Of a DNA stretch of 64,000 nucleotides, positions 20,998 through 33,900 are shown one piece after another (within the stretch, counting starts at the first letter, position 1; every line of letters begins with the position of its first letter). The stretch is from NCBI RefSeq assembly GCF_988243305.1, contig NZ_OZ547136.1; one strand, 5' to 3'. Position numbers and translations under genes: made by a program. The notes under the pieces were generated by a model, which saw nothing but the letters and a program-made list of their open reading frames with translations, was not told the DNA's origin and searched no databases.

Positions 20998-21684
20998 ATG
21001 AGCTTTATGGTTTTTGTAACTTGTTTGACAATTGCATTTGTCGCCGGTTTTGCTGTTGCCAGAAAATTGACACTCCGAAAAGTTGCCTCATCGGTAATCA
21101 TCACTAGATCGCAACCAGTCCCTTCCTCTGCAACTTCCCCTGCTGCTAAGGCGTCGACAAGGAGCTATACACCGCAGAAAACCTATCGTGACTCTCGTTG
21201 GCAAGAACGAGATGAGTTGTTCCAGGGAATGGTTGCCGAAGGTATTTTATTGGAAGGAAAAGAGTGGTTAATTACGCGTTGTGAAAAAATTTATTTTGAT
21301 AATCTGGAGAAATGGTTTGGACATTCTTGTCATATCCATTGCCAGGTCTCTCTGGGGCGCTTGATCAACTTTCCAGAACAACCCGAGTTTAGCGAAGAAG
21401 AAAGAAAGCGTTTCTTTGCAATTTATAATGGAATGGCAATGGATTATGTTCTGGTTTCAAAGAAGAACAATAAAATAGTCTGTGTTATTGAGCTGGATGA
21501 GCCGAGTCATGAAAGGGCAGATCGCATTATTCGTGACCGTTGGTTGAATACGATTATGACTATTGCACGGGTGCCTTTTGTACGAGCTTCTGTCACTAAA
21601 TTGGATGAAATCCCTCCGGTCTGGGATACCCGTGACAAAATTCGCCCATTAGCCGCGGCGACAAAGGGTGAACCGTTGCATTAA
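20998..21684 (+). CDS. membrane-anchored DUF2726-like (PD-(D/E)xK nuclease-fold) protein
   Basis: 228-aa ORF. N-terminal hydrophobic helix MSFMVFVTCLTIAFVAGFAVA. C-terminal DYVLVSKKNNKIVCVIELDEPSHERADRIIRDRWLNTIMTIARVPFVRA fits the DUF2726 pattern as I recall it. Preceded by a very AT-rich leader. Confidence 0.6.
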   Translation: MSFMVFVTCLTIAFVAGFAVARKLTLRKVASSVIITRSQPVPSSATSPAAKASTRSYTPQKTYRDSRWQERDELFQGMVAEGILLEGKEWLITRCEKIYFDNLEKWFGHSCHIHCQVSLGRLINFPEQPEFSEEERKRFFAIYNGMAMDYVLVSKKNNKIVCVIELDEPSHERADRIIRDRWLNTIMTIARVPFVRASVTKLDEIPPVWDTRDKIRPLAAATKGEPLH

Positions 21685-21690
21685 CTAAGT

Positions 21691-21790
21691 ACCCCGGTCA
21701 GGGCTTCTCATCTCCCCCGGTGTGTGCAATATACGAAAAAAAAGCCCGTACCTTCGTACGAGCTCTTCTTTAAAGATGGCGGTGAGGGGG
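21691..21790. repeat. direct repeat copy A: terminator-containing flank ending in an antisense tRNA-Ser 3'-end-like core (putative att)
   Basis: About 100 bp, near-identical to 21872..21969. Ends in tggcggtgaggggggatt, the reverse complement of the 3' end of tRNA-Ser (serX/serW type) as I remember it. Contains a minus-strand hairpin plus T-run (gagctcgtacgaaggtacgggcTTTTTTTT). Confidence 0.75.
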
Positions 21791-21871
21791 GATTGACTCG
21801 CTTCGCTCGCCCTGCGGGCAGCCCGCTCACTGCGTTCACGGTCTGTCCAACTGGCTGTCGCCAGTTGTCGA

Positions 21872-21969
21872 ACCCCGGTCGGGGCTTCTCATCCCCCTGT
21901 GTGTGCAATATACGAAAAAAAAGCCCGTACCTTCGTACGAGCTCTTCTTTAAAGATGGCGGTGAGGGGG
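21872..21969. repeat. direct repeat copy B of the putative att/flank repeat
   Basis: The last ~70 bp are identical to copy A. Ends in tggcggtgaggggga and is followed within 160 bp by the integrase start. Confidence 0.75.
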
Positions 21970-22129: not shown

Positions 22130-23332
22130 ATGGCAGTATTGACGGATACGAAAGCAAGACATATCAAACCTGATGACAAACCATTGCCCCATGGGGGAAT
22201 TACCGGACTGACCCTTCATCCTTCTTCAGTAAAGGGGCGGGGGAAATGGGTTTTTCGTTATGTAAGTCCGGTGACACAAAAAAGACGTAATGCTGGATTG
22301 GGAACTTACCCAGAGGTCAGTATTGCTGAAGCTGCACGTACTGCCCGGATAATGCGAGAGCAACTTGCTGCAGGTGATGATCCTCTGGAGATTAAAAAGG
22401 CTGAATCTGAGAAAGTCGCTATCCCAACATTTGCCGATGCAGCCAGGCGTGTACATGCAGAACTGTCTCCTGGATGGGAAAATCCAAAGCATGTAAGGCA
22501 GTGGTTATCGACGCTTGAGAATTACGCGTTTCCTCAACTGGGAGCAAAAACGCTGGATTCGATTACGGCTGCGGACGTGGCAGAAACACTGCGTCCAGTC
22601 TGGTTAACCTTATCAGAAACGGCAAGCCGGGTTAAACAGCGCATTCATGTTGTTATGCAGTGGGGATGGGCGCACGGTTTTTGTGTAGCAAATCCTGTTG
22701 ATGTGGTTGACCATTTGCTTCCTCAGCAGACAAGAGGACGTGATGAACACCAACCCGCAATGCCCTGGAGGCAGTTACCGCTTTTTGTGGCGACCAGTGT
22801 GTATACCGATGAACCTTATAATGTTACCCGCGCACTGTTATTAATGGTGATACTTACAGCAACTCGCTCGGGCGAAGCCAGGGGAATGCGCTGGGCTGAA
22901 ATTGATTTTCATAAGCGGGTATGGACTATACCTGCAGAAAGAATGAAAGCTAGGCTACAGCATCGTGTTCCTTTATCCCGGCAGGCTATTTACATTCTGG
23001 AAAATATACGTGGCCTGCATGATGAACTGGTGTTCCCTTCACCCAGAAAGCAGCAGATCCTTTCCGATATGGTGTTGACAAGTTTTCTGCGTAAAAAGAA
23101 AGCCGTCAGTGACATTCCGGGGCGAGTTGCCACGGCACATGGTTTTCGCTCAACATTCAGGGACTGGTGTAGCGAACAGGGGTATTCGCGGGATCTGGCG
23201 GAAAGGGCGCTCGCTCATACGCTGAAAAATAAGGTTGAGGCGGCATATCATCGTACTGATCTACTGGAGCAGCGTGTACCGATGATGCAGGCATGGGCGG
23301 ATTATGTGATGTCTCAAATTGTGAATAAATAA
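22130..23332 (+). CDS. int: P4/CP4-57-type tyrosine integrase
   Basis: 400-aa ORF. N-terminal DUF4102-like LTDTKARHIKPDDKPLPHGGITGLTLHP...GKWVFRY. Catalytic R (TATRSGEARGMRW), HxxR (HGFRSTFRDW) and Y (VEAAYHRTD). Confidence 0.9.
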   Translation: MAVLTDTKARHIKPDDKPLPHGGITGLTLHPSSVKGRGKWVFRYVSPVTQKRRNAGLGTYPEVSIAEAARTARIMREQLAAGDDPLEIKKAESEKVAIPTFADAARRVHAELSPGWENPKHVRQWLSTLENYAFPQLGAKTLDSITAADVAETLRPVWLTLSETASRVKQRIHVVMQWGWAHGFCVANPVDVVDHLLPQQTRGRDEHQPAMPWRQLPLFVATSVYTDEPYNVTRALLLMVILTATRSGEARGMRWAEIDFHKRVWTIPAERMKARLQHRVPLSRQAIYILENIRGLHDELVFPSPRKQQILSDMVLTSFLRKKKAVSDIPGRVATAHGFRSTFRDWCSEQGYSRDLAERALAHTLKNKVEAAYHRTDLLEQRVPMMQAWADYVMSQIVNK

Positions 23333-23518
23333 TAGTGAAAATGTATATTGTACGATCATGATTTGATATGTGATCGTAGCAGTAGTAATTAAGAAACCGC
23401 TTTTATGTCAAATGTATTGAGCTGATAATTATCAGATCGTCAGGAAAGCGTATTTTGATTAACAGGGGATTACTTAACAATCCCCTTTTTATAAAAAATA
23501 ATTTGCCTGTTTAACTCT

Positions 23519-25336
23519 TCACTCCTGCTGAGACTGAATTATTCCTAGTGCGTCATAAATCAGTCTTCTGCGTAGTTTATTGTTTTTATCTGCACCATAT
23601 AACATAAATATATTTTCAACTTTTTCTTCAGGTGTTCTGAGATAATGGATAAGAAAGGTTATCATTCCAACACAATGGAATAAAGTGAATCCATCAAACA
23701 GGCTTATCAGGTTTCCTTTTTTTTCCCGTGTTGTAAGTATTTTTTCGCGGGTAAGAATATTTGCCAGTTCATGGGGGGCTGATATGTTTCTGCTGTCTAT
23801 AATGTCATTTATTTTACCAAGGGCTATATCAACTTCCTGTAATAGGTTATTTATCATAGCTGAGTGAATGTTATTGGTTTCATGTTCCTGACAGTTTATG
23901 AACTTATAAATCATTGAGTTATACAGAAATATTACTCTTCCTAATAAATATGTGTTTGTGTCATTTTGAAGACAGGACTCTGGGTATTCGTGATCCAGTG
24001 AAATAAGGTTAATGGACTCGCCCTGATAAGTCATAAAATAATTGATGTCATTTAATAATGCTCGGATATTTACATGATTTTTACTGAATTTTATTTTAAA
24101 TGCTATCTTTAGTATAGCAAACGCGGCAATGATAAATCCAAAAGGTAATTTCTCATAGTTCAGTTTATTGATGGTGCGATGAACACTTTCAGTCTTTCCT
24201 GAAGTAAGTTGTCTCAAACAGTTAACAAATTCTGTATAGCCATTTAAGACATAATGGCATGAAGAATCTTTTAAAGAGTTTTCTATGTTTTGTAATGTGA
24301 CGCCGTTGTTCAATGTATAAATGTAACCGCCAAAGACAATGTTTTCAATCTCAACGACACAATTTATTGTTTTTTGTTCAGGATAAAGATAAATATCAGA
24401 AATACTATAGTCTCGTATTGCGTCAATGGCATCCCACGATAATGCACTGTCAATTTTCAGTGTATAAAATGGTGAGTTCTCATTAGGAAAGTAATATATG
24501 TATTTGTTCAGTATATTCATTACATCTATTGGGTTGGTTAAATATAATAACTGGCATTCATATTCTGAAACTTCTCTTTCGCTTATCAGCATTTTATATA
24601 AAGTTGCCAGGGTGCTTGTTAATGAAGTTCGTCTTTCGAAAGCCAGTAATATAGTGAGATAATAACATGCAACCTGAACTTTATCTAAGTCAGAAATTAT
24701 TTTTTCCTTGTCTTCATTACTTAAATAAAGCAGATGTTTACAGGTTTCTTTGCATGTGTTGATAGTTGCGATAAGTTTTGTTTTTCCTGGTGTACTGTTT
24801 TTGCGAATATTACGAATGAATTCATATACGCCATCAAAGATATCTTTGAAATGCGCATTCGCTGGCGTGTATCCGGATAAACATAACTTAACGTAATTTC
24901 GCAGATATGTCCTTGCAGCATGATATATATCATCCTCATTATCCGGTATCTGAGTGAGAAAAGAATGAATATGATAGTAAAATGCCATCTCATTATCCGG
25001 GCGATATGTGTTCCTGATGTCGAGTGCGAGAATCATTGGTACAATGTCATTAAAATATTTTTGTTTTATTATTTGATGTGTTTTGTCTGTAAAAACAGAA
25101 TAGTGCATTAGCTTAACATAGAGATCTTCATATCTCCTAAATATAACTTTTCGTTGTTCTTTACTCAATACTTGTTCTTTATCAATAATGTTTATTAATT
25201 CATCAAACATGTCGCCCAGTGAATGTTGATGTGAGGAAAAATTTTTAATATTTCGGATGTCACGGCTATTCTGGTTTTTAGCCAGAACACCAAAACATGA
25301 AAAGACATCATACATTATAGTGATAAAATTATACAT
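23519..25336 (-). CDS. hypothetical 605-aa protein, low-GC orphan
   Basis: Long uninterrupted ORF in a strikingly AT-rich segment. I recognise no domain. Has one or two hydrophobic segments (LPFGFIIAAFAILKIAF, FTLFHCVGMITFLIHYL). Confidence 0.6.
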   Translation of the reverse strand: MYNFITIMYDVFSCFGVLAKNQNSRDIRNIKNFSSHQHSLGDMFDELINIIDKEQVLSKEQRKVIFRRYEDLYVKLMHYSVFTDKTHQIIKQKYFNDIVPMILALDIRNTYRPDNEMAFYYHIHSFLTQIPDNEDDIYHAARTYLRNYVKLCLSGYTPANAHFKDIFDGVYEFIRNIRKNSTPGKTKLIATINTCKETCKHLLYLSNEDKEKIISDLDKVQVACYYLTILLAFERRTSLTSTLATLYKMLISEREVSEYECQLLYLTNPIDVMNILNKYIYYFPNENSPFYTLKIDSALSWDAIDAIRDYSISDIYLYPEQKTINCVVEIENIVFGGYIYTLNNGVTLQNIENSLKDSSCHYVLNGYTEFVNCLRQLTSGKTESVHRTINKLNYEKLPFGFIIAAFAILKIAFKIKFSKNHVNIRALLNDINYFMTYQGESINLISLDHEYPESCLQNDTNTYLLGRVIFLYNSMIYKFINCQEHETNNIHSAMINNLLQEVDIALGKINDIIDSRNISAPHELANILTREKILTTREKKGNLISLFDGFTLFHCVGMITFLIHYLRTPEEKVENIFMLYGADKNNKLRRRLIYDALGIIQSQQE

Positions 25337-25476
25337 AACATTCTCCTTTTATTGCACTATATAAAATTTTAACATTATATCATTTTGCTTTTCTGTTAAC
25401 TGGTTTTCATTTTTGAATCAATATTTTCTGAACAGGGTAATAGTACACGTATTAACAGATTATGTCAGAAGGCCCC

Positions 25477-26239
25477 GGTGATGCCTTCTGACGATAGATT
25501 AATGTTGTATTCTATTGGTATCTGGAGACCATATGGCAACAGTTACAGTATATTCTCCCCGCTGTAATTCCTATAAAGTGTACCGTTATGATCACAGCAC
25601 CTCAGATCATGAGCGTTTCCAGTGCTAATCCTGCAAACGTGTATTTCAACTGAATTACATCTACGAAACCCGAAAACCAGGCATTAAAGAGCAAATTGTT
25701 GAAATGGTTCATAACGGAGCCGGGGGTCGCGATAGCTCCAGAACGCTGAAGGTGGATATCAACACCGTCATTCTCACTTTAAAAAACGCTCACCACGTAA
25801 AGTAACCATATCTCCAGCCGCCAGTGTCGATGTGGCACTTATCTGTGAACTTGATGAACAATGGAGTTTTGTCGAAAACAAAGCTCGTCAGCAGTGGCAC
25901 TGGTACGCGTATAAGACCAAAGCTGACGGTGTGCTGGCTTACACTTTTGGTCCTCGCACTGATGAAACATGCCGTGAGTTGCCGGAATTCCTGAAGCCAT
26001 TCTCCGCAGGCATGATAACCAGAGACAACCGGAGCAGTTATACCAGAGAAATGCCACAGGATAAGCATCTTGTCGGCAAGATATTTACCCGGCGCATTGA
26101 GCGCAACAATCTGACACTTCGTACTCACATCAAACGACCTGCCCGGAAAACGATTTGCTTTTTACGCTCCCTGGAAATTCACGAAAAGCCATTGGTTCAT
26201 TTATCGAAAACACATGTACTACTGACAGGAGTCATTACC
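25477..26239 (+). mobile_element. divergent IS1-family element, decayed
   Basis: Left end ggtgatgcc... resembles the IS1 IR, and the right end ...gtcattacc is a partial match. InsA-like frame MATVTVYSPRCNSYKVYRYDHSTSDHERFQC*SCKRVFQL... carries an in-frame stop. InsB-like ORF 25832.. (ICELDEQWSFVENKARQQWHWYAY...RIERNNLTLRTHIKR). Length ~763 bp. Confidence 0.65.
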
Positions 26240-26435
26240 AGGGCCTCTTTTGCTGTTTTTTTGCCATGAATGATAATGAGAATCGACAGCGATAAGGGAA
26301 AAGTAAAATAACACTAATGCTGTCGTTTTCTATCATATTGATTTTTAATTATTTATTGTCTTTTTTCTCAACCCATTTTTTTACGCAGACAAATTTACCC
26401 GGGGAATACAAACTGTAACGACAGTTCACCACACT

Positions 26436-26744
26436 ATGGGGGATAAAATGCCAGATCAATCCGGACACTGCAGGACTCCTTCACGCATCTTACGGATGCC
26501 TGAACTGAGCCAATTGTTAGGTATATCTCGTTCGACAATTTACGAAAAAATGAATCCGTTATCGAAATACTACGATGCAACCTTCCCCAGGCCGGTACGT
26601 CTTGGTAGTGGTTCTGTGGGCTGGCGTTCATCAGCTATTGACGAATGGCTTACTTTACATACTGTACCTGCCAGATCAGCAGTCAAAGGTGTTAATGACG
26701 AAGTGAGACATACGCTTTCTTCAGATATGACCATGAGCAGATAA
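26436..26744 (+). CDS. alpA: AlpA-family (MerR-like HTH) phage/island transcriptional regulator
   Basis: RILRMPELSQLLGISRSTIYEKMNP...YDATFPRPVRLGSGSVGWRSSAIDEWL matches the AlpA/Prophage CP4-57 regulatory family pattern. Confidence 0.8.
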   Translation: MGDKMPDQSGHCRTPSRILRMPELSQLLGISRSTIYEKMNPLSKYYDATFPRPVRLGSGSVGWRSSAIDEWLTLHTVPARSAVKGVNDEVRHTLSSDMTMSR

Positions 26745-26851
26745 GTTTTTGTCATCACGTGATCACCTCAGGAGGAAAAAGAAGCATAAGAACAATTTAG
26801 CCAGAAGTTTAATTGATAAACAAAATTTCCAGCATTCATTGTTGAAAGAGC

Positions 26852-26905
26852 AGCTATTGTCGCTATTGTCGCTATTGTCGCTATTGTCGCTATTGTCGCT
26901 ATTGT
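26852..26905. repeat. six tandem 9-bp units (agctattgt then cgctattgt x5), iteron-like
   Basis: Directly readable perfect tandem array. A 2-unit version of the same motif recurs at 27353..27390 upstream of the DUF3987 gene. Confidence 0.9.
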
Positions 26906-26937
26906 AGCGGTAATTGCTGCTATAACCGAAACGTATT

Positions 26938-27204
26938 ATGAAAAAGGAAGCATTTATGCCTTACATCAAACCGGATATGCCGTATTCAGTATATGCATGA
27001 CCATCAATGATAGGGAAGGCAATAATTAAAGCTCAATACAATAAACAAGTACCTCTGACTCTGGTTGCAATGTCAGTATTAACAGCGATGTCAATTGCCT
27101 GTCAGAATCAGGTTGACGTATGCAGTCCCGGAAATTTACGTGGGGCCGTTAATATTTACACTATGGTTCTGGAGAAAGGGAAAAGACCGGGGGAAAGGTA
27201 TTAG
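26938..27204 (+). pseudogene. truncated, frameshifted duplicate of the 5' end of the DUF3987 gene
   Basis: MKKEAFMPYIKPDMPYSVYA* followed by ...AIIKAQYNKQVPLTLVAMSVLTAMSIACQNQVDVCSPGNLRGAVNIYTMVL... This parallels MKREAFMCLLAPENPYPIYALPPLVRNAIIETQKNTQAPLAMVATSALTAISIACQNQIDVCRPGNLHGPVNLYSLIL of the downstream gene. Confidence 0.6.
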
Positions 27205-27404
27205 TGAAATAATTTCCGGAGGTATTAAGAATGAGAAATATGAATGATATTTCGTGGTGAATAATACAGTCTTCACTGAATTAACCTTATCGGTTTATTA
27301 AACATCAGATCTACAAATGCTCTGTATTTCTCAGAGCATCAGGTCTGAATAGCAGCTATTTTCGCTATTGTAGCGGGATTTGCTGCTATTTTACTAACCC
27401 ATTA

Positions 27405-28856
27405 ATGAAAAGAGAGGCTTTTATGTGCTTACTTGCACCAGAAAATCCTTATCCGATATATGCACTACCACCGCTGGTGAGAAATGCAATAATTGAAACT
27501 CAAAAAAATACACAGGCACCTTTGGCTATGGTGGCAACATCCGCATTAACAGCGATCTCAATTGCCTGTCAGAATCAGATTGACGTGTGCAGACCTGGAA
27601 ATTTACATGGGCCTGTTAATCTTTACTCTCTGATTCTGGCTGATTCCGGTGAAAGGAAAACGACCGTGGATAAAGTGTTTATGAAAGCATTTTATCTCAG
27701 GGATGAAGCCCTGGCGGATGAATACGCGAAACTGGTTGAGAATTACAGTACAGAAAAGGAAATATGGGAGCAAAAACAAAAAGCGCTGGAATCAAAATTT
27801 CATAAAGAGATTCGTGCCGGTAAAGATTACAAGGCAACAGAATCAGAGCTTGAAACGCATCTGAATAAACCTCCTGTTCCGCCGCAGATACGTCGAACAA
27901 TTTTTAATGAGACAACGATAGAGGGAATGTTAAAATATTACTCCGATAGCAATCGCTCTTTTGCTCTTGTATCCAGTGAAGGGGGGGTAATTTTTGACAG
28001 CCGGGCCATGAGTAAACTGGGAATTATTAACACTTTGTGGGATGGAGGTTCTCTTTTCATCGACAGGAAATCATCTCCCGGAATTAATTTGAAGGAGCCA
28101 AGACTGACGATATCGGTGATGATTCAGCCTGATGTTTACCACAAAGGTTTTTGTACGCGAAAAAAAGAAATTGTGAAAACGTCAGGACATCATGCAAGGT
28201 TTTTGATGTGTCAACCAACATCAACGCAGGGGACAAGGATAATAACCGGAGATAATTATTCATCACAGTATCAGGATTTGTTTGAAGAGAGGATCAATGA
28301 GCTTATTGATGAAAGTCTGGCGATGAGTGGTGAACGACGTTGCCTTCACTTTTCTCCTCAGGCTGCCAGAATCTGGACGGATTATTACAATGATGTGGAA
28401 TCGAAGCTGGGGGGATTGGGGCCTTTAAGACATTGCCGGGAATATGCTGCTAAAAATGCAGAGTATATGGCAAGACTGGCAGGACTTATTTACCATTCGA
28501 GCGGTGAAGAGGGGGAGATTTCCCCTTACACTGCAGAAATGGCGAGAGAATTAGCAATATGGTACGGTAATGAGTATGTGCGGTTGTCTAATCCGTTAAC
28601 TTTTGACAACTCTGCCCTGACCGTACCTGTGCGACTCATTCCAGAGGAGCTTGAACTTTTCAACTGGATAAAAAGCTATTGTATTGAGAAGGGGATCCTC
28701 TGTATGAAAAAAAATGACATTTTACAGCGTGGTCCGAACCGTTTCCGGAAAAAGGATAAAATCAACTGGTTACTGGATTTACTGTATGAACAAAACAGAG
28801 TTGTACCGGTTATTGAGGGAAAAACGTTGTGTGTCGCACCTAACTTTGACCTCTGA
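27405..28856 (+). CDS. DUF3987 / YfjI-like protein (P4-alpha-related replication/helicase-loader-like island backbone protein)
   Basis: 483-aa ORF. N-terminal YPIYALPPLVRNAI...APLAMVATSALTAISIACQ...SGERKTTVD is the typical DUF3987 signature. Same position as yfjI in CP4-57. Confidence 0.75.
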   Translation: MKREAFMCLLAPENPYPIYALPPLVRNAIIETQKNTQAPLAMVATSALTAISIACQNQIDVCRPGNLHGPVNLYSLILADSGERKTTVDKVFMKAFYLRDEALADEYAKLVENYSTEKEIWEQKQKALESKFHKEIRAGKDYKATESELETHLNKPPVPPQIRRTIFNETTIEGMLKYYSDSNRSFALVSSEGGVIFDSRAMSKLGIINTLWDGGSLFIDRKSSPGINLKEPRLTISVMIQPDVYHKGFCTRKKEIVKTSGHHARFLMCQPTSTQGTRIITGDNYSSQYQDLFEERINELIDESLAMSGERRCLHFSPQAARIWTDYYNDVESKLGGLGPLRHCREYAAKNAEYMARLAGLIYHSSGEEGEISPYTAEMARELAIWYGNEYVRLSNPLTFDNSALTVPVRLIPEELELFNWIKSYCIEKGILCMKKNDILQRGPNRFRKKDKINWLLDLLYEQNRVVPVIEGKTLCVAPNFDL

Positions 28857-29676: not shown

Positions 29677-30240
29677 ATGTATAATGCTAATCCCAATTAC
29701 GAAATGGACTTCATGATTCTGAAAGACGTGAATGAACACATGGAAGGTCTGTTTCAACGTTTTTCTAAACTGTTACCTTTCAGAATTGATTTTGCCTACA
29801 GGAAAGACACGCCCAGTTTTGGTCATTCCTGTAGGCACAGTATGTGTATTGAAATGCACCGCTTACTTAGTGAAACCCAAACGATGCTGGCGGGATATTA
29901 CTGGGTAATGGAATATACGTCAAACAAGGGACTTCATATTCATTTTATCGGCTACTTGGATGGGCAACGTCACAAGAAATTTTATCGGATATCCAGGCAA
30001 CTGGGAGATATCTGGAGTCGGATCACGGAAGGGGAGGGTTATTTTCACCTGTGCAGTACTAAAGACAAATACTCGGTGCGTATCGATCACGTGATTCACT
30101 ATAGTGATAAGTCTGCGGTAGACGGTTTACGTTACGCCCTTAGCTACCTGGCTAAACAGGATCAGAAAGAACACGGTATTATTCTGGGCCGTAGCAGGCT
30201 TCCCGAAAAAAGCAACCGGGGCCGACCACGACATAACTGA
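29677..30240 (+). CDS. inovirus Gp2-family / YagK-YfjJ-like protein (HUH-type)
   Basis: 187-aa ORF with LLPFRIDFAYRKD and GLHIHFIGYLDG (HUH-like) motifs; same position as yfjJ in CP4-57. Confidence 0.7.
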   Translation: MYNANPNYEMDFMILKDVNEHMEGLFQRFSKLLPFRIDFAYRKDTPSFGHSCRHSMCIEMHRLLSETQTMLAGYYWVMEYTSNKGLHIHFIGYLDGQRHKKFYRISRQLGDIWSRITEGEGYFHLCSTKDKYSVRIDHVIHYSDKSAVDGLRYALSYLAKQDQKEHGIILGRSRLPEKSNRGRPRHN

Positions 30241-30394
30241 ATTACAGTTGTATTAGGTATTAAAATTAAGTTTCTGTAAGTTGTTGGGAGGTGCTTGAGT
30301 TAATAGGCAGAAGAGGGCGGGGCGCTTTGTCATCAGTGTAGGGGACCCGAATTTCTGCCGTGGTACCTCAGTGGATCGGATACAGGTAACGAAT

Positions 30395-30739
30395 ATGGTT
30401 CATAAATCTGACAGTGATGAATTAGCTGCACTGAGGGCAAACATAACTTGAAGCTTATGGGATTGAATGGCGACGTAAACCGCAGAGTCCTGTGCAGTGC
30501 GTTTCCGTATTATCCACGGATGAGAAAGTTGCGTTATTTTGTCGACTGTTTCGCGGGCGTGATGATGTATGGGCCCTTCGATGGGAAAGCAAAACCAGCG
30601 GCAAATCAGGGTACTTGCGGGCCTGTGCTAACGAATGGCAGCCGGGAATAGCGGTAAACTCCGGATAAAATGTGGGGACTGCGCTCACCGTCAGTTGATC
30701 CCTGTATCTGATCTCATCATCTACCACTACACGGTTTAA
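30395..30739 (+). pseudogene. 5' remnant of an archaeo-eukaryotic-primase/helicase-type conflict-system gene (two frameshifts, premature stops)
   Basis: Three frame segments: MVHKSDSDELAALRANIT* / LEAYGIEWRRKPQ...STDEKVALFCRLFRGRDDVWALRWESKTSGKSGYLRACANEWQPG...* / KCGDCAHRQLIPVSDLIIYHYTV*. From memory this matches the conserved N-terminus of that family. Confidence 0.5.
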
Positions 30740-30902: not shown

Positions 30903-33900
30903 TTGGAAGTAGAAATGTGGGATGGTGGCTTACAAGAACAGGAAGTATTGGCTATCGAGAAAATAAAAGCTGCTTTTTCAGTCAACGTATCTAAGCCTGA
31001 CAAGCCTTTCCGTAGCGGTTCAATTAGTGAGCAGCTAAAAAGCTATGGTTTTATCGGCAATGAAATGTTCCCTTGGAAAGGTTATGCAGGTTTTCGATTT
31101 GTTGAGGCAAAAAAAGAGGGGGAATTCGATTTAGTTATTGTAACACACTGCAACGTGATCATTGTTGAACTGAAAGACTGGAACCATCAGCCTGTAACCG
31201 CACGCGGAGATACTTGGTTTAAAGGCGATAAGAACATGGGGCGCTCGCCAGTAAGCGTGACTCGTAGCAAAAAATTCATGCTGGACAAAAAACTCAAGCG
31301 TCTGGTAGACCGTTTTACGAACAAAGGCTATATCCCGATTGTTCATTTTTTTGTTGTGATGACCGGCAATGCAGATTTCAGCGCGCTGCCGGAGGAACAA
31401 CGGCGCCATACGATCTCGTTAAAAGATTTCCTGAAGTTTGCCGATCGCGGGAGCTTCAATAACTATTTCAAACCGCACCCAGCTACCAAGGTTCTTAACA
31501 AGGATTTCCATCTTTTCGATGATTTGTTCCTAGGGCCTCAGACGGCACCAAAAGCCTTGAGAGTTAATGGCTATGAAGCTAATGATATGATTTTCGAACA
31601 TCCTAAAAAGGTGTATCGAGAATATCTGGCAAAATCTGAGATATCAACGAACAGCGAAGCGCTACTCAGAGTATGGAATTTTAGAAATATAACGGGAACG
31701 AAAGCGAATACCCCGGAAGGACGAGCTCAGATTGTTTCACGTGAGCGCGAAGTGTTACAGCACATCAATCACCAGAATCGTGACCTGTATAACCACTGTC
31801 TCAGGTCTTTGACGAGTTTTCAGAAAGACGAGGTGACGGCCGAGTATAGCGAAGTCTACGAAGTTCCGCCGGGTCATGTCCGGTTTAATGAGTTTATCGG
31901 AAAATATGGTAAGAACTTTTCTGATATGGACCGCTTGAATGTGGTGAAACTGCTCATTGCAAAGTTTAGTGATCTCCATGAGATGAAAATTGCGCACAGG
32001 GATGTCGCCGATCACAGTCTGTGGATTTCACCTTCAAAAGAAGTTGCTCTTTCGAACTTTATTTCGGCTTACCACCAGCCAGCCGGAACGGTTGGCGATT
32101 ACCGTAAGCTTTTATCCGTAGGTGCAGTCCACGTAAAAGACATGCTTGATAAGGGCGAGCTTACGCCTTTTCAGCAAGATGTTCATACTCTGGGCCTTGT
32201 CGCCTGGCACTTATTTAGCGGTATGCGCATGTCGCCAAAGAGTCTGGAGAAAGTACAGGACAACATGCTAAACAGCCAGCACTGGTATTCATCTGTATTA
32301 CGGGATGCCGTTGCCGCAAAATTCACTTCTGCAACAGAATTCTTTGATGCCCTGAAACAAGCCGAACCTGCTGGCAAGGATATTCCAACATTTGATGATA
32401 CTGAGCTTGACCCTTACCGACATGCTATCAATCACGCTCGTCAATACCCGGAAGACGATGGCTTTCAGTTTCAGGTCGAAACAGTCGACAAAGAAGTCTA
32501 TATCTCGAAAGGAAGGCTCGTGAAGGCTTGGCTGAATGTTGGGGGACAGGGATACGATCCGTCAATTAATTTCCAGGTTCTGAAGTTTTTAAAGCAGGTT
32601 GAGCGGCTTTCTTCAGTTAAAACAACGTATCTACCTCAAATTCGTGAATTCGGTATCGCATCAAAATCATCAAGCCTATATATGGTCACGGATCAGGTAC
32701 AGGGAGAAACCTGGGATAAAATAGCGGTCCCCGATGATGAAAAAATCGACCTCATTGGTAAGTTTGTCGCCGCCGTTGAGCACTTACATGGTCTGGGTGT
32801 TTCTCACGGGGACATCCACCCTGGCAATGTGATATTTGAGACACAGAGCCGTTTGCTTTTTCTCATCGATATCCCCGATTTTTCACCGTCCGGTGACGAA
32901 CCTAAAAATCACAGTTACAGCCCTGAATACATTGATAATTGTACTTCTTTTGAACGTGACAACTATGCAGTGATGAAGATGTCCTGCGAGTTGCTAGGCA
33001 TGTCATGGGGGCTGGAATCAGACATTTATCCGACAATCGCGAATGCTATCCGAGCAGAGCTGGAAGATCCGGTTTTTGGGTTTAAGGATTTAGGCCGCTT
33101 TAAAAAAGCGATAGATAGTAATGACCTGGTGCCAGAACAAGACCTGATAGAGATTACTGCAGGAAATGCCGATGAAATAATCTCTATTCTGCCTGATAAC
33201 GGGCATCTGTATGTCAAAGTTAAGTCAAATCCTAAAGCGCCAGCTGAAGTAAATGTGACTTTCTCTGGGATTGGTGGCAGTTTTACTGCGGTGTTCAACA
33301 AAGATCAGAAGACGCTGGTTCATGGCTTCAGGCCACGGGCTCGCGTCACAATTCGTAAGCAAGATATTGATGAAAGCCAGTTCGAAATTGATACTGGCAT
33401 CAAGATTATTCCCGGCAGTCCGCAGGATCTGTCGGCGTTGACAGTATTGCTTAATGAAGAAGAATCTTTTGCGCGGGCAATCGAGTTGATTGCCGCAACT
33501 GAAGATGTTCAGGTACAAGAGCCACTTACGCTTCAGCTAAAAGATACCTTTGCAAGGCTTGATAAGCAGACGCTTGAACCTTCTTTAAGAGAAGTGCTGG
33601 AAATCCCAACAGTGAAACTGTGGCGCGCCATTCTGGATACTGAAACAGAATCTTATCCAAACATTGAAATCAGCGGTGAAGTGGTCCCGGTTGCAGATGC
33701 TCATGGAGAGCTTCTTCTCCCTTACTCTGCTGATGTTGATCCACTCGGTGCTTTCAGAAGTAGTGATGAAGTCGAAGCCTTACAGGTCGATCAGGAAGGT
33801 GTTGAGCGATTTATTGGTGAAGTGTCACTTAAGAAGTCAGAGCTCAAAGAGATTCGTCTTGTCAAAGTTAGTTCAGCAGCCTTCAAGCTGAAGGATTCTG

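Follow-up and report, generated by a model that had tools for sequence, protein, structure and literature searches.

An uncharacterised all-helical protein family encoded head-to-head with alpA in P4-integrase islands

What does a long, AT-rich gene do that lies beside an integrase and carries no recognisable domain? This question is raised by a 64,000-nucleotide stretch of Escherichia coli DNA (contig NZ_OZ547136.1 of assembly GCF_988243305.1; the whole stretch is hereafter called the window), which covers the efeB-phoH region and carries an integrative island. A single open reading frame (ORF) with an ATG start, orf605, encodes 605 amino acids on the minus strand (23519..25336) and is convergent with a P4-type tyrosine integrase gene on the plus strand (22130..23332; Arm-DNA-bind_3, Phage_int_M and Phage_integrase matches). 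An earlier note, made from the letters of the window, had described orf605 as one long ORF opposite the integrase strand, flanked by the integrase and by a decayed element of the insertion sequence IS1 family, and Pfam matches on both sides bear this out. We find that orf605 is a backbone gene of the SRL-PAI / OI-43/48 / SpLE1 P4-integrase islands and not cargo. It makes up an ancient pair of divergent genes with alpA/rox, in which alpA heads an operon with yfjI and yfjJ.

The pairing of orf605 with alpA

Two kinds of search gave very different pictures of the distribution of orf605. A word-indexed protein search with its product returned E. coli copies only, at no less than 91% identity, and a profile search in the word-indexed database found nothing beyond these copies. 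By contrast, an exhaustive HMMER scan of 1.84 billion representatives yielded 34 clusters, of which about 15 are full-length relatives (568-689 aa) of 19-35% identity. The phmmer E values of 13 remote full-length matches (28-35% identity) ran from 4e-71 to 1.6e-30 and were weaker for more distant relatives. The earlier note had called the gene an orphan; this no longer holds, and its apparent orphan status arose because the search was word-indexed. The hosts include Escherichia, Citrobacter, Klebsiella, Yersinia, Kluyvera, Hafnia, Dickeya and Edwardsiella, as well as Morganella, Providencia, Xenorhabdus, Salmonella diarizonae, Leclercia, Enterobacter, Aeromonas and Shewanella, and every relative is annotated 'hypothetical protein'. 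One Aeromonas variant of 866 aa has a 310-aa N-terminal extension. We dropped a reading of this extension as a degenerate helix-turn-helix (HTH) plus DDE domain, for which the best Pfam match (E 0.046) was to an unrelated family and the PDB gave no support.

We then determined the genomic context of the relatives, a survey that the earlier note had proposed, and found them in islands that combine int, alpA and DUF3987 genes. All eight remote homologues looked up, which span 19-35% identity and include the two weakest matches (E = 1.6e-5 and 4.8e-4), have alpA as their head-to-head neighbour; a DUF3987 gene comes after alpA and, in most cases, YagK/YfjJ after that. In relatives with an uninterrupted intergenic region the gap between the two genes measures 59-249 bp, mostly about 100 bp. 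The same arrangement is present in E. coli E2348/69 and PK8277, where a homologue of about 30% identity is head-to-head with alpA, followed by DUF3987. The integrases of these two strains are 98% and 95% identical to that of the window, and the [homologue|alpA-DUF3987] block is inverted relative to the integrase. Among the relatives, it is mostly on the far side of the module that the integrase is found.

The reverse test started from AlpA. An AlpA alignment was run against one genome per GTDB species, and a local profile search for the orf605 family and for DUF3987 was made at 80 loci. At every one of the 13 loci whose AlpA proteins are closest (52-74% identity; nine enterobacterial genera), alpA has a divergent family member beside it and DUF3987 is present, and most of these loci also have Gp2 and an integrase farther along. 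None of the 67 remaining AlpA loci has a family member. Overall, the head-to-head pairing with alpA was seen in 21 of 21 contexts outside the window's E. coli allele, and in the contexts examined a family member was never seen apart from alpA. The conserved neighbour of the family is thus one clade of alpA and not the integrase, and the earlier picture of a stand-alone gene defined by its adjacency to the integrase has to be given up. This fixed pairing (21/21, and 0/67 outside the clade) fits a backbone gene and not variable abortive-infection cargo.

The partners have diverged to different extents. By BLASTP, the window AlpA is 61-80% identical to those of six elements with remote homologues, the corresponding value for the DUF3987 proteins being 21-26%; the AlpA proteins beside the two most distant, Aeromonas-type homologues are 38-44% identical to it. 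The gene tracks AlpA: pairwise identities within the orf605 family correlate with those of AlpA at a Spearman value of 0.85, against 0.73 for DUF3987. Minimal islands, in CFT073 and Edwardsiella, consist of approximately int, an orf605 homologue, alpA, yfjI and yfjJ. E. coli harbors at least four family alleles (605, 607, 611 and about 615 aa), which share only about 30% identity with the protein of the window. Three of them were seen in context, at serX/serW sites and with integrases 95-98% identical to that of the window, and in two allele types the [gene|alpA-yfjI] block is inverted. The layout of these alleles amounts to a strong mosaicism of the switch module. In the Aeromonas and Shewanella element that harbors the distant 689-aa family version, a gene for an H-NS paralogue directly follows yfjJ, a noteworthy find given that every family member is AT-rich.

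The composition of orf605 raises another possibility, namely that it is a spurious or decaying ORF in AT-rich horizontally acquired DNA. As the earlier note had remarked, the gene is markedly AT-rich: its GC content is 0.325 (0.30 at third codon positions), whereas the integrase gene has 0.49, the island 0.43 and the flanking core genome 0.53, and the commonest codons of orf605 are TAT, AAA, ATA, GAA, AAT and ATT. It is annotated as a hypothetical protein everywhere, and frameshifts and insertions do occur now and then: IS1 or IS2 interrupts the gene in six listed genomes, and a minority of E. coli variants are cut to 541-546 aa by a frameshift in a C6 run (23773-23778, codon 520, minus strand) or an A8 run (23717-23724, codon 538, minus strand). 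The frameshifted proteins lack the conserved C-terminal 60-85 residues, and these events could be simple decay or on/off slippage. Against a spurious ORF stand the full-length conservation of the family down to 19% identity, a confident structural model that depends on the family alignment (see below), and an intact gene in about 1030 of 5426 complete E. coli genomes. In a comparison with a 92%-identical E. coli allele, dN/dS (omega) is 0.18 for orf605 (dS 0.20, dN 0.037) and 0.05 for the adjoining integrase. In addition, the protein was seen by mass spectrometry in cultured EDL933 cells, and the peptides HLLyLSNEDKEK and YIYYFPNENSPFyTLK match it exactly. These results refute a spurious or decaying ORF: orf605 encodes a real, expressed protein under selection.

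A protein family without a recognisable domain

An alignment of 26 family sequences has 48 positions that are at least 85% identical. Conserved polar residues crowd the first 125 or so residues (H36, Q37, D52, R62, E70, D106, H122), and a second conserved set lies in the C-terminal third (K416, N432, Q438, N473, K508, C555, E571). The conserved residues match no nameable motif. Searches of Pfam, NCBIfam, PADLOC and PHROGs with the orf605 protein and 15 relatives gave nothing below E of about 0.005, and the weak domain matches were each confined to a single family member. Single-protein and profile searches of PDB sequences reached a best E of 0.27. The earlier statement that no catalytic motif or domain can be recognised is therefore borne out. 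No literature bearing on function was found for WP_000282209, TOTE or YfjH.

Particular protein classes were examined in turn. The orf605 protein has no recognisable DNA-binding domain of the kind expected of an HTH-type master repressor such as cI, Stl or ImmR. Neither an Abi or HEPN domain in Pfam nor a conserved Rx4-6H motif was found in the family. PADLOC-DB v2 (5027 defence hidden Markov models, systems to 2023) assigned no family to the orf605 protein and six relatives. In 50,697 phage records tblastn found no match to the family, and IMG/VR gave no relatives in a scan whose patterns came from the window protein alone and so reached close relatives only. Four 'plasmid' matches are E. coli records of 0.2-4.8 Mb and are probably chromosomal.

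Structure prediction depended on the family alignment. From the single sequence, AlphaFold gave an unusable model with a mean predicted local distance difference test score (pLDDT) of 38. With a 15-sequence family alignment, AlphaFold2 gave a model with a pLDDT of 83.6 and a predicted template modelling (TM) score of 0.84, made of 28 helices and essentially no strands. This gain indicates that the alignment carries a real co-evolutionary signal. The Foldseek comparison that the earlier note had suggested, run on the family-based model, gave no informative fold match (best E 0.66 and TM of at most 0.17 against the PDB; best E 0.09 against BFVD). We conclude that orf605 belongs to an uncharacterised all-helical protein family.

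Two features singled out in the earlier note can be placed on this model. Of the one or two hydrophobic helices, the stretches themselves are there, at residues 397-417 and 543-565, where 19-residue windows reach Kyte-Doolittle values of 1.6-2.0 and include conserved lysines; the residue blocks covering them have a pLDDT of 85-96 and lie inside the globular all-helical model, where they are more probably buried than membrane-spanning. The near-P-loop NSTPGKT is likewise present (residues 180-186), but its kinship to a P-loop is not borne out. We rejected a P-loop NTPase, as the motif lacks the first G of the Walker A pattern GxxxxGK[ST], neither G184 nor K185 is conserved (the family consensus there is NIRxGxxQKxSTI), no P-loop match was found in Pfam, and the all-helical model has no beta-sheet core.

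The control region and a proposed role in the AlpA/Rox switch

The short gap between family member and alpA is itself conserved. In uninterrupted elements it holds the block CATCTGAGATACTGTCCnCGTnnAAAAAyGGAAACCAACyGGAG, followed after 10-15 nt by ATG. Over 52 nt 5' of the homologue starts, register-compared pairs are 69-81% identical, the proteins being 32-36% identical. By eye, weak -10-like elements can be seen on both strands of the block; overlapping divergent sigma-70 promoters could be read from them, a reading to which a promoter scanner gave no backing.

In the window, alpA is the next gene beyond an IS1-family remnant. The decayed element occupies 25533..26225 (plus strand), on the evidence of a DDE_Tnp_IS1 match and of uninterrupted relatives, and the DDE_Tnp_IS1 ORF (25832-26269) is treated by RefSeq as a frameshifted pseudogene in near-identical loci. 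Alignment with homologous intergenic regions places a remnant of the right part of the block, CAAAAATGAAAACCAG, on the orf605 side (25400..25415, minus strand) and its left part, TTTGTCTGCGTAAAAAAATGG, on the alpA side (26373..26393, minus strand). The IS1-family element and extra DNA lie inside the block region in the window and in all of the approximately 1030 E. coli genomes with this allele. Judging from these alignments, an IS1-family insertion has split the conserved region and uncoupled the pair in this E. coli lineage. Here orf605 would now run from a promoter of its own: this allele has a putative extended -10 element, TGATATAAT (25382-25374, minus strand), a perfect match about 38 nt 5' of the ATG, together with a probable Shine-Dalgarno sequence, AAGGAG (25348-25343, minus strand). 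At the other end, a hairpin terminator between the convergent integrase and orf605 genes (23464-23486) is common to both.

We propose that orf605 encodes the second arm of the AlpA/Rox switch for excision and replication in the island life cycle, a reading to which we give a probability of about 0.4. The protein would most likely serve as a sensor or anti-activator, setting or reading the state of the alpA-yfjI-yfjJ operon. Since no DNA-binding domain was found and the isoelectric point (pI) is not conserved, ranging from 5.7 to 9.2 across the family, it would act through protein-protein contact and not as a classical HTH repressor. The proposal draws on what is known of the partner. In satellite P4, vis, which belongs to the AlpA family, stands divergent from sid-delta-psu. 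Rox, the AlpA homologue of the SRL PAI, stimulates excision (PMC2704930), AlpA is the helper-induced master switch of Gram-negative phage-inducible chromosomal islands (PMC11773190), and it is necessary and sufficient for excision of the phage-inducible chromosomal minimalist islands (PICMI) (PMC10803314).

Several observations weigh against this proposal. No DNA-binding or other domain is detectable in the family, and its varying pI does not look like that of a nucleic-acid binder. A sigma-70 scanner found no site in one locus (L003) and one weak site in another (L010), so the promoters of the block may be weak or activator-dependent. Family identities also correlate with those of DUF3987 (Spearman 0.73), and linkage alone cannot separate a gene that works with AlpA from one that has always travelled with it. 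Finally, the family member is frameshifted in three of 13 genomic relatives whose neighbouring genes are intact, and frameshifts and insertions occur in E. coli, so that orf605 is dispensable for carrying the island. More speculative still, and in our view doubtful, is the wider claim that the family is a structurally new, island-encoded sensor or anti-activator that gates the AlpA/Rox switch, times excision and replication of the serX/serW islands, and is the missing 'master regulator' of Gram-negative P4-integrase islands.

Comparison with characterised elements bears on the proposed role. Like Stl of the Staphylococcus aureus pathogenicity islands (SaPI) and cI of prophages, orf605 is divergent from an excision/replication operon. 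Stl alleles are very divergent among otherwise similar elements, and so are those of the orf605 family. Unlike Stl and cI, the orf605 protein has no HTH or other DNA-binding domain that we could find and is about twice as large; a sensor/anti-activator analogous to Stl in role but unrelated in fold is something we suggest with little confidence. In the SRL PAI, the gene order int, orf2 (YfjI-like), rox, orf4 ('no similarity'), orf5 (Gp2) is that of E2348/69, where the slot of orf4 is filled by a 611-aa family member; orf4 and the Sakai locus tag are equated with the family from gene order. In CP4-57 of E. coli K-12, yfjH resembles orf605 in following int on the opposite strand, head-to-head with alpA, then yfjI and yfjJ, and CP4-57 likewise has defence cargo (AbpAB) after yfjJ. 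In contrast to orf605, YfjH has 318 aa instead of about 600, and the CP4-57 AlpA is 52% identical (BLASTP) to that of the window. Homology between YfjH and the orf605 protein was rejected (hhalign probability 0.06%).

The PICMI of Vibrionaceae also carry genes of unknown function (iolg/icg, up1/up2) in an int-alpA-DUF3987 core. There, iolg is needed for excision and up2 is a defence gene (PMC10803314). Unlike orf605, iolg is co-directional with int and overlaps it, and these elements have about six genes in total; no homology between the PICMI genes and orf605 was detected. Gamma-Mobile-Trio (GMT) islands were rejected as a counterpart, their core being two recombinases and a StbA-like protein, with neither AlpA nor DUF3987.

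Satellite P4 suggests another role. There, vis, a gene of the AlpA family, is the first of the replication operon and has a divergent unit across a short control region, and orf605 could be the positional analogue of sid-delta-psu, that is, a 'late' function for helper exploitation or interference switched on with or by AlpA. The P4 layout is alike, with alpha to vis on one strand, then ori, and then sid, delta and psu on the other, and the lack of a good sigma-70 promoter in the block is what one would expect of an activator-dependent promoter. Both Sid and Psu are helical, and the late promoters of P4 are under the control of Vis. It has also been reported that phages transduce islands with int, alpA and Gp2-like genes (PMC12595487). 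The likeness is incomplete, since P4 has three small genes instead of one large one, and an ori in the gap. Moreover, hhalign gave probabilities of at most 0.4% for Sid, Delta, Psu and all 12 P4 proteins, on which we rejected homology; no relatives were found in phage genomes or, in a scan that reached close relatives, in viral contigs; and these islands are as large as 66-90 kb, with no helper known for them. We therefore judge a late function distinctly unlikely.

We consider it more improbable again that orf605 is a replication or partition accessory of the YfjI/YfjJ replicon, such as a helicase loader or an origin-binding adaptor. The gene always shares a cassette with DUF3987 and Gp2-like proteins, iteron-like 9-bp repeats lie between alpA and yfjI, and the divergence of orf605 (25-35%) is near that of DUF3987 (21-26%). 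However, the family has no nucleic-acid-binding signature, and the window YfjI is 41% identical to the YfjI of CP4-57, an element with YfjH, which is closer than it is to the YfjI proteins of family-bearing elements. Thus, orf605 does not track the helicase.

The island, its defence cargo and its control

The remaining backbone identifies the island. The integrase gene is 99.8% identical at the DNA level to the O157 OI-43/48 copies (99.8-100% in O157 and other genomes), and the OI-43/48 integrase has been reported to be 99% identical to that of the SRL PAI (PMC3064760). Two copies of a 14-bp att core, TGGCGGTGAGGGGG, which is the 3' end of a tRNA-Ser, lie on the plus strand at 21777-21790 and 21956-21969 (0.01 expected); according to published work, OI-43/48 of O157:H7 and the Shigella SRL PAI have the same 14-bp direct repeat (PMC3064760). 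Downstream of the IS1 remnant, an alpA/rox-type recombination directionality factor gene (26448..26744; Phage_AlpA, Pfam E = 5.6e-19) is followed by a YfjI-type DUF3987 gene for a putative replicative helicase/primase-associated protein (27405..28856; Pfam E = 5.3e-84) and by a YagK/YfjJ gene for an inovirus-type Gp2-like protein (29677..30240; weak Pfam matches, and the RefSeq name in identical loci), all on the plus strand. With the TGGCGGTGAGGGGG core, the P4-type integrase and the Rox/AlpA factor all present, the sequence places the island in the serX/serW type, that is, the SRL-PAI / OI-43/48 / SpLE1 class. The earlier description of a P4/CP4-like element is supported, the island being P4/CP4-57-like. 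Because no third, far-end copy of TGGCGGTGAGGGGG was found in the window, this copy of the island may no longer excise by recombination between direct repeats. ARAGORN and Rfam found no intact tRNA in the window, and neither a tRNA nor any Rfam family was detected within the island or close to it.

Several further features of this region were noted. The att cores end two 78-nt direct repeats, 99% identical and 179 bp apart, that lie within 21713-21969. Between phoH and these repeats lies a gene for a 228-aa DUF2726 protein (20998-21684, plus strand) with a hydrophobic N-terminus and no PADLOC match; DUF2726 is also fused to a helicase beside one relative of the island (L018). About eight tandem 9-bp units (GCTATTGTC / ATTGTCGCT) lie between alpA and yfjI (26838-26917), with a second, partial set 460 bp downstream (27340-27374). 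They look like iterons, and the island's replication origin may lie here. A 203-nt duplication (26970-27172 versus 27437-27639, 78% identical) includes a truncated yfjI 5' end, which corresponds to a 65-aa ORF (27007-27204).

Beyond the backbone, the island carries defence genes. A complete type I Mokosh system occupies 30903-37306 (plus strand): MkoA (1656 aa) is a full-length PADLOC match at 2212 bits, and MkoB (478 aa, 503 bits) overlaps the MkoA stop by 4 nt. Comparison with SW4848 locates the remnant of a TOTE-type archaeo-eukaryotic primase gene immediately upstream, at about 30350-30680. Beyond MkoB, 37303-39432 holds a 16S rRNA methyltransferase gene fragment, whose counterparts in SW4848 and CFT073 are annotated as pseudogenes, together with an IS3-family element (orfA 38219-38545, orfB 38542-39432), with a 120-aa ORF (37786-38148) just to the left of the element and a 525-aa ORF starting just to its right.

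This setting suggests another reading of orf605, that of a single-gene anti-phage protein, acting by abortive infection or exclusion, that is fixed beside alpA and pays the host for carrying the island; H36, Q37, D52, R62, E70, D106 and H122 would then form an effector or ligand site. Besides the MkoA, MkoB and TOTE primase genes of this island, relatives lie beside type I restriction-modification, CHAT, GASH/GAP1, SLATT and CRISPR-Cas genes, and in all elements the family gene is AT-rich relative to its neighbours. Alleles that are about 30% identical next to integrases 95-98% identical would fit an evolutionary arms race. A putative promoter and a terminator serve the gene itself, and the protein is seen in cultured cells; moreover, a small conserved, non-essential gene of the PICMI satellites is a defence gene (PMC10803314). 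Nevertheless, none of seven family members has a PADLOC match, Pfam gives no Abi or HEPN match, and no effector fold can be recognised. In addition, from Enterobacterales to Aeromonas the gene keeps one position, orientation and spacing with respect to alpA and was never seen apart from it, which is atypical of defence cargo, since such cargo turns over in hotspots. The earlier suggestion of a defence or exclusion gene thus holds for the cargo of the island (MkoA and MkoB); for orf605 it is unsupported, although possible. We regard an anti-phage function of orf605 as unlikely, although it deserves serious consideration, and the family as more likely island control machinery than a stray defence gene.

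The island type had been described before, as had its integrase and its recombination directionality factor. To these our analysis adds a fifth co-inherited backbone gene, whose product has a fold unlike any solved one, and the control region that this gene has in common with alpA. For genome scans, it follows that an AT-rich orphan beside an integrase is insufficient for a defence call; here the telling neighbour is alpA. About a fifth of complete E. coli genomes have islands of this class, among whose cargo are tellurite resistance, urease, Iha, multidrug resistance (SRL) and anti-phage systems; orf605 with its shared control region is a concrete, testable candidate for what controls their excision beside Int and Rox/AlpA. 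If the wider and doubtful claim of a master regulator is correct, the orf605 family would decide when the SRL PAI, the tellurite/adherence island OI-43/48 and the islands that carry Mokosh excise and replicate.

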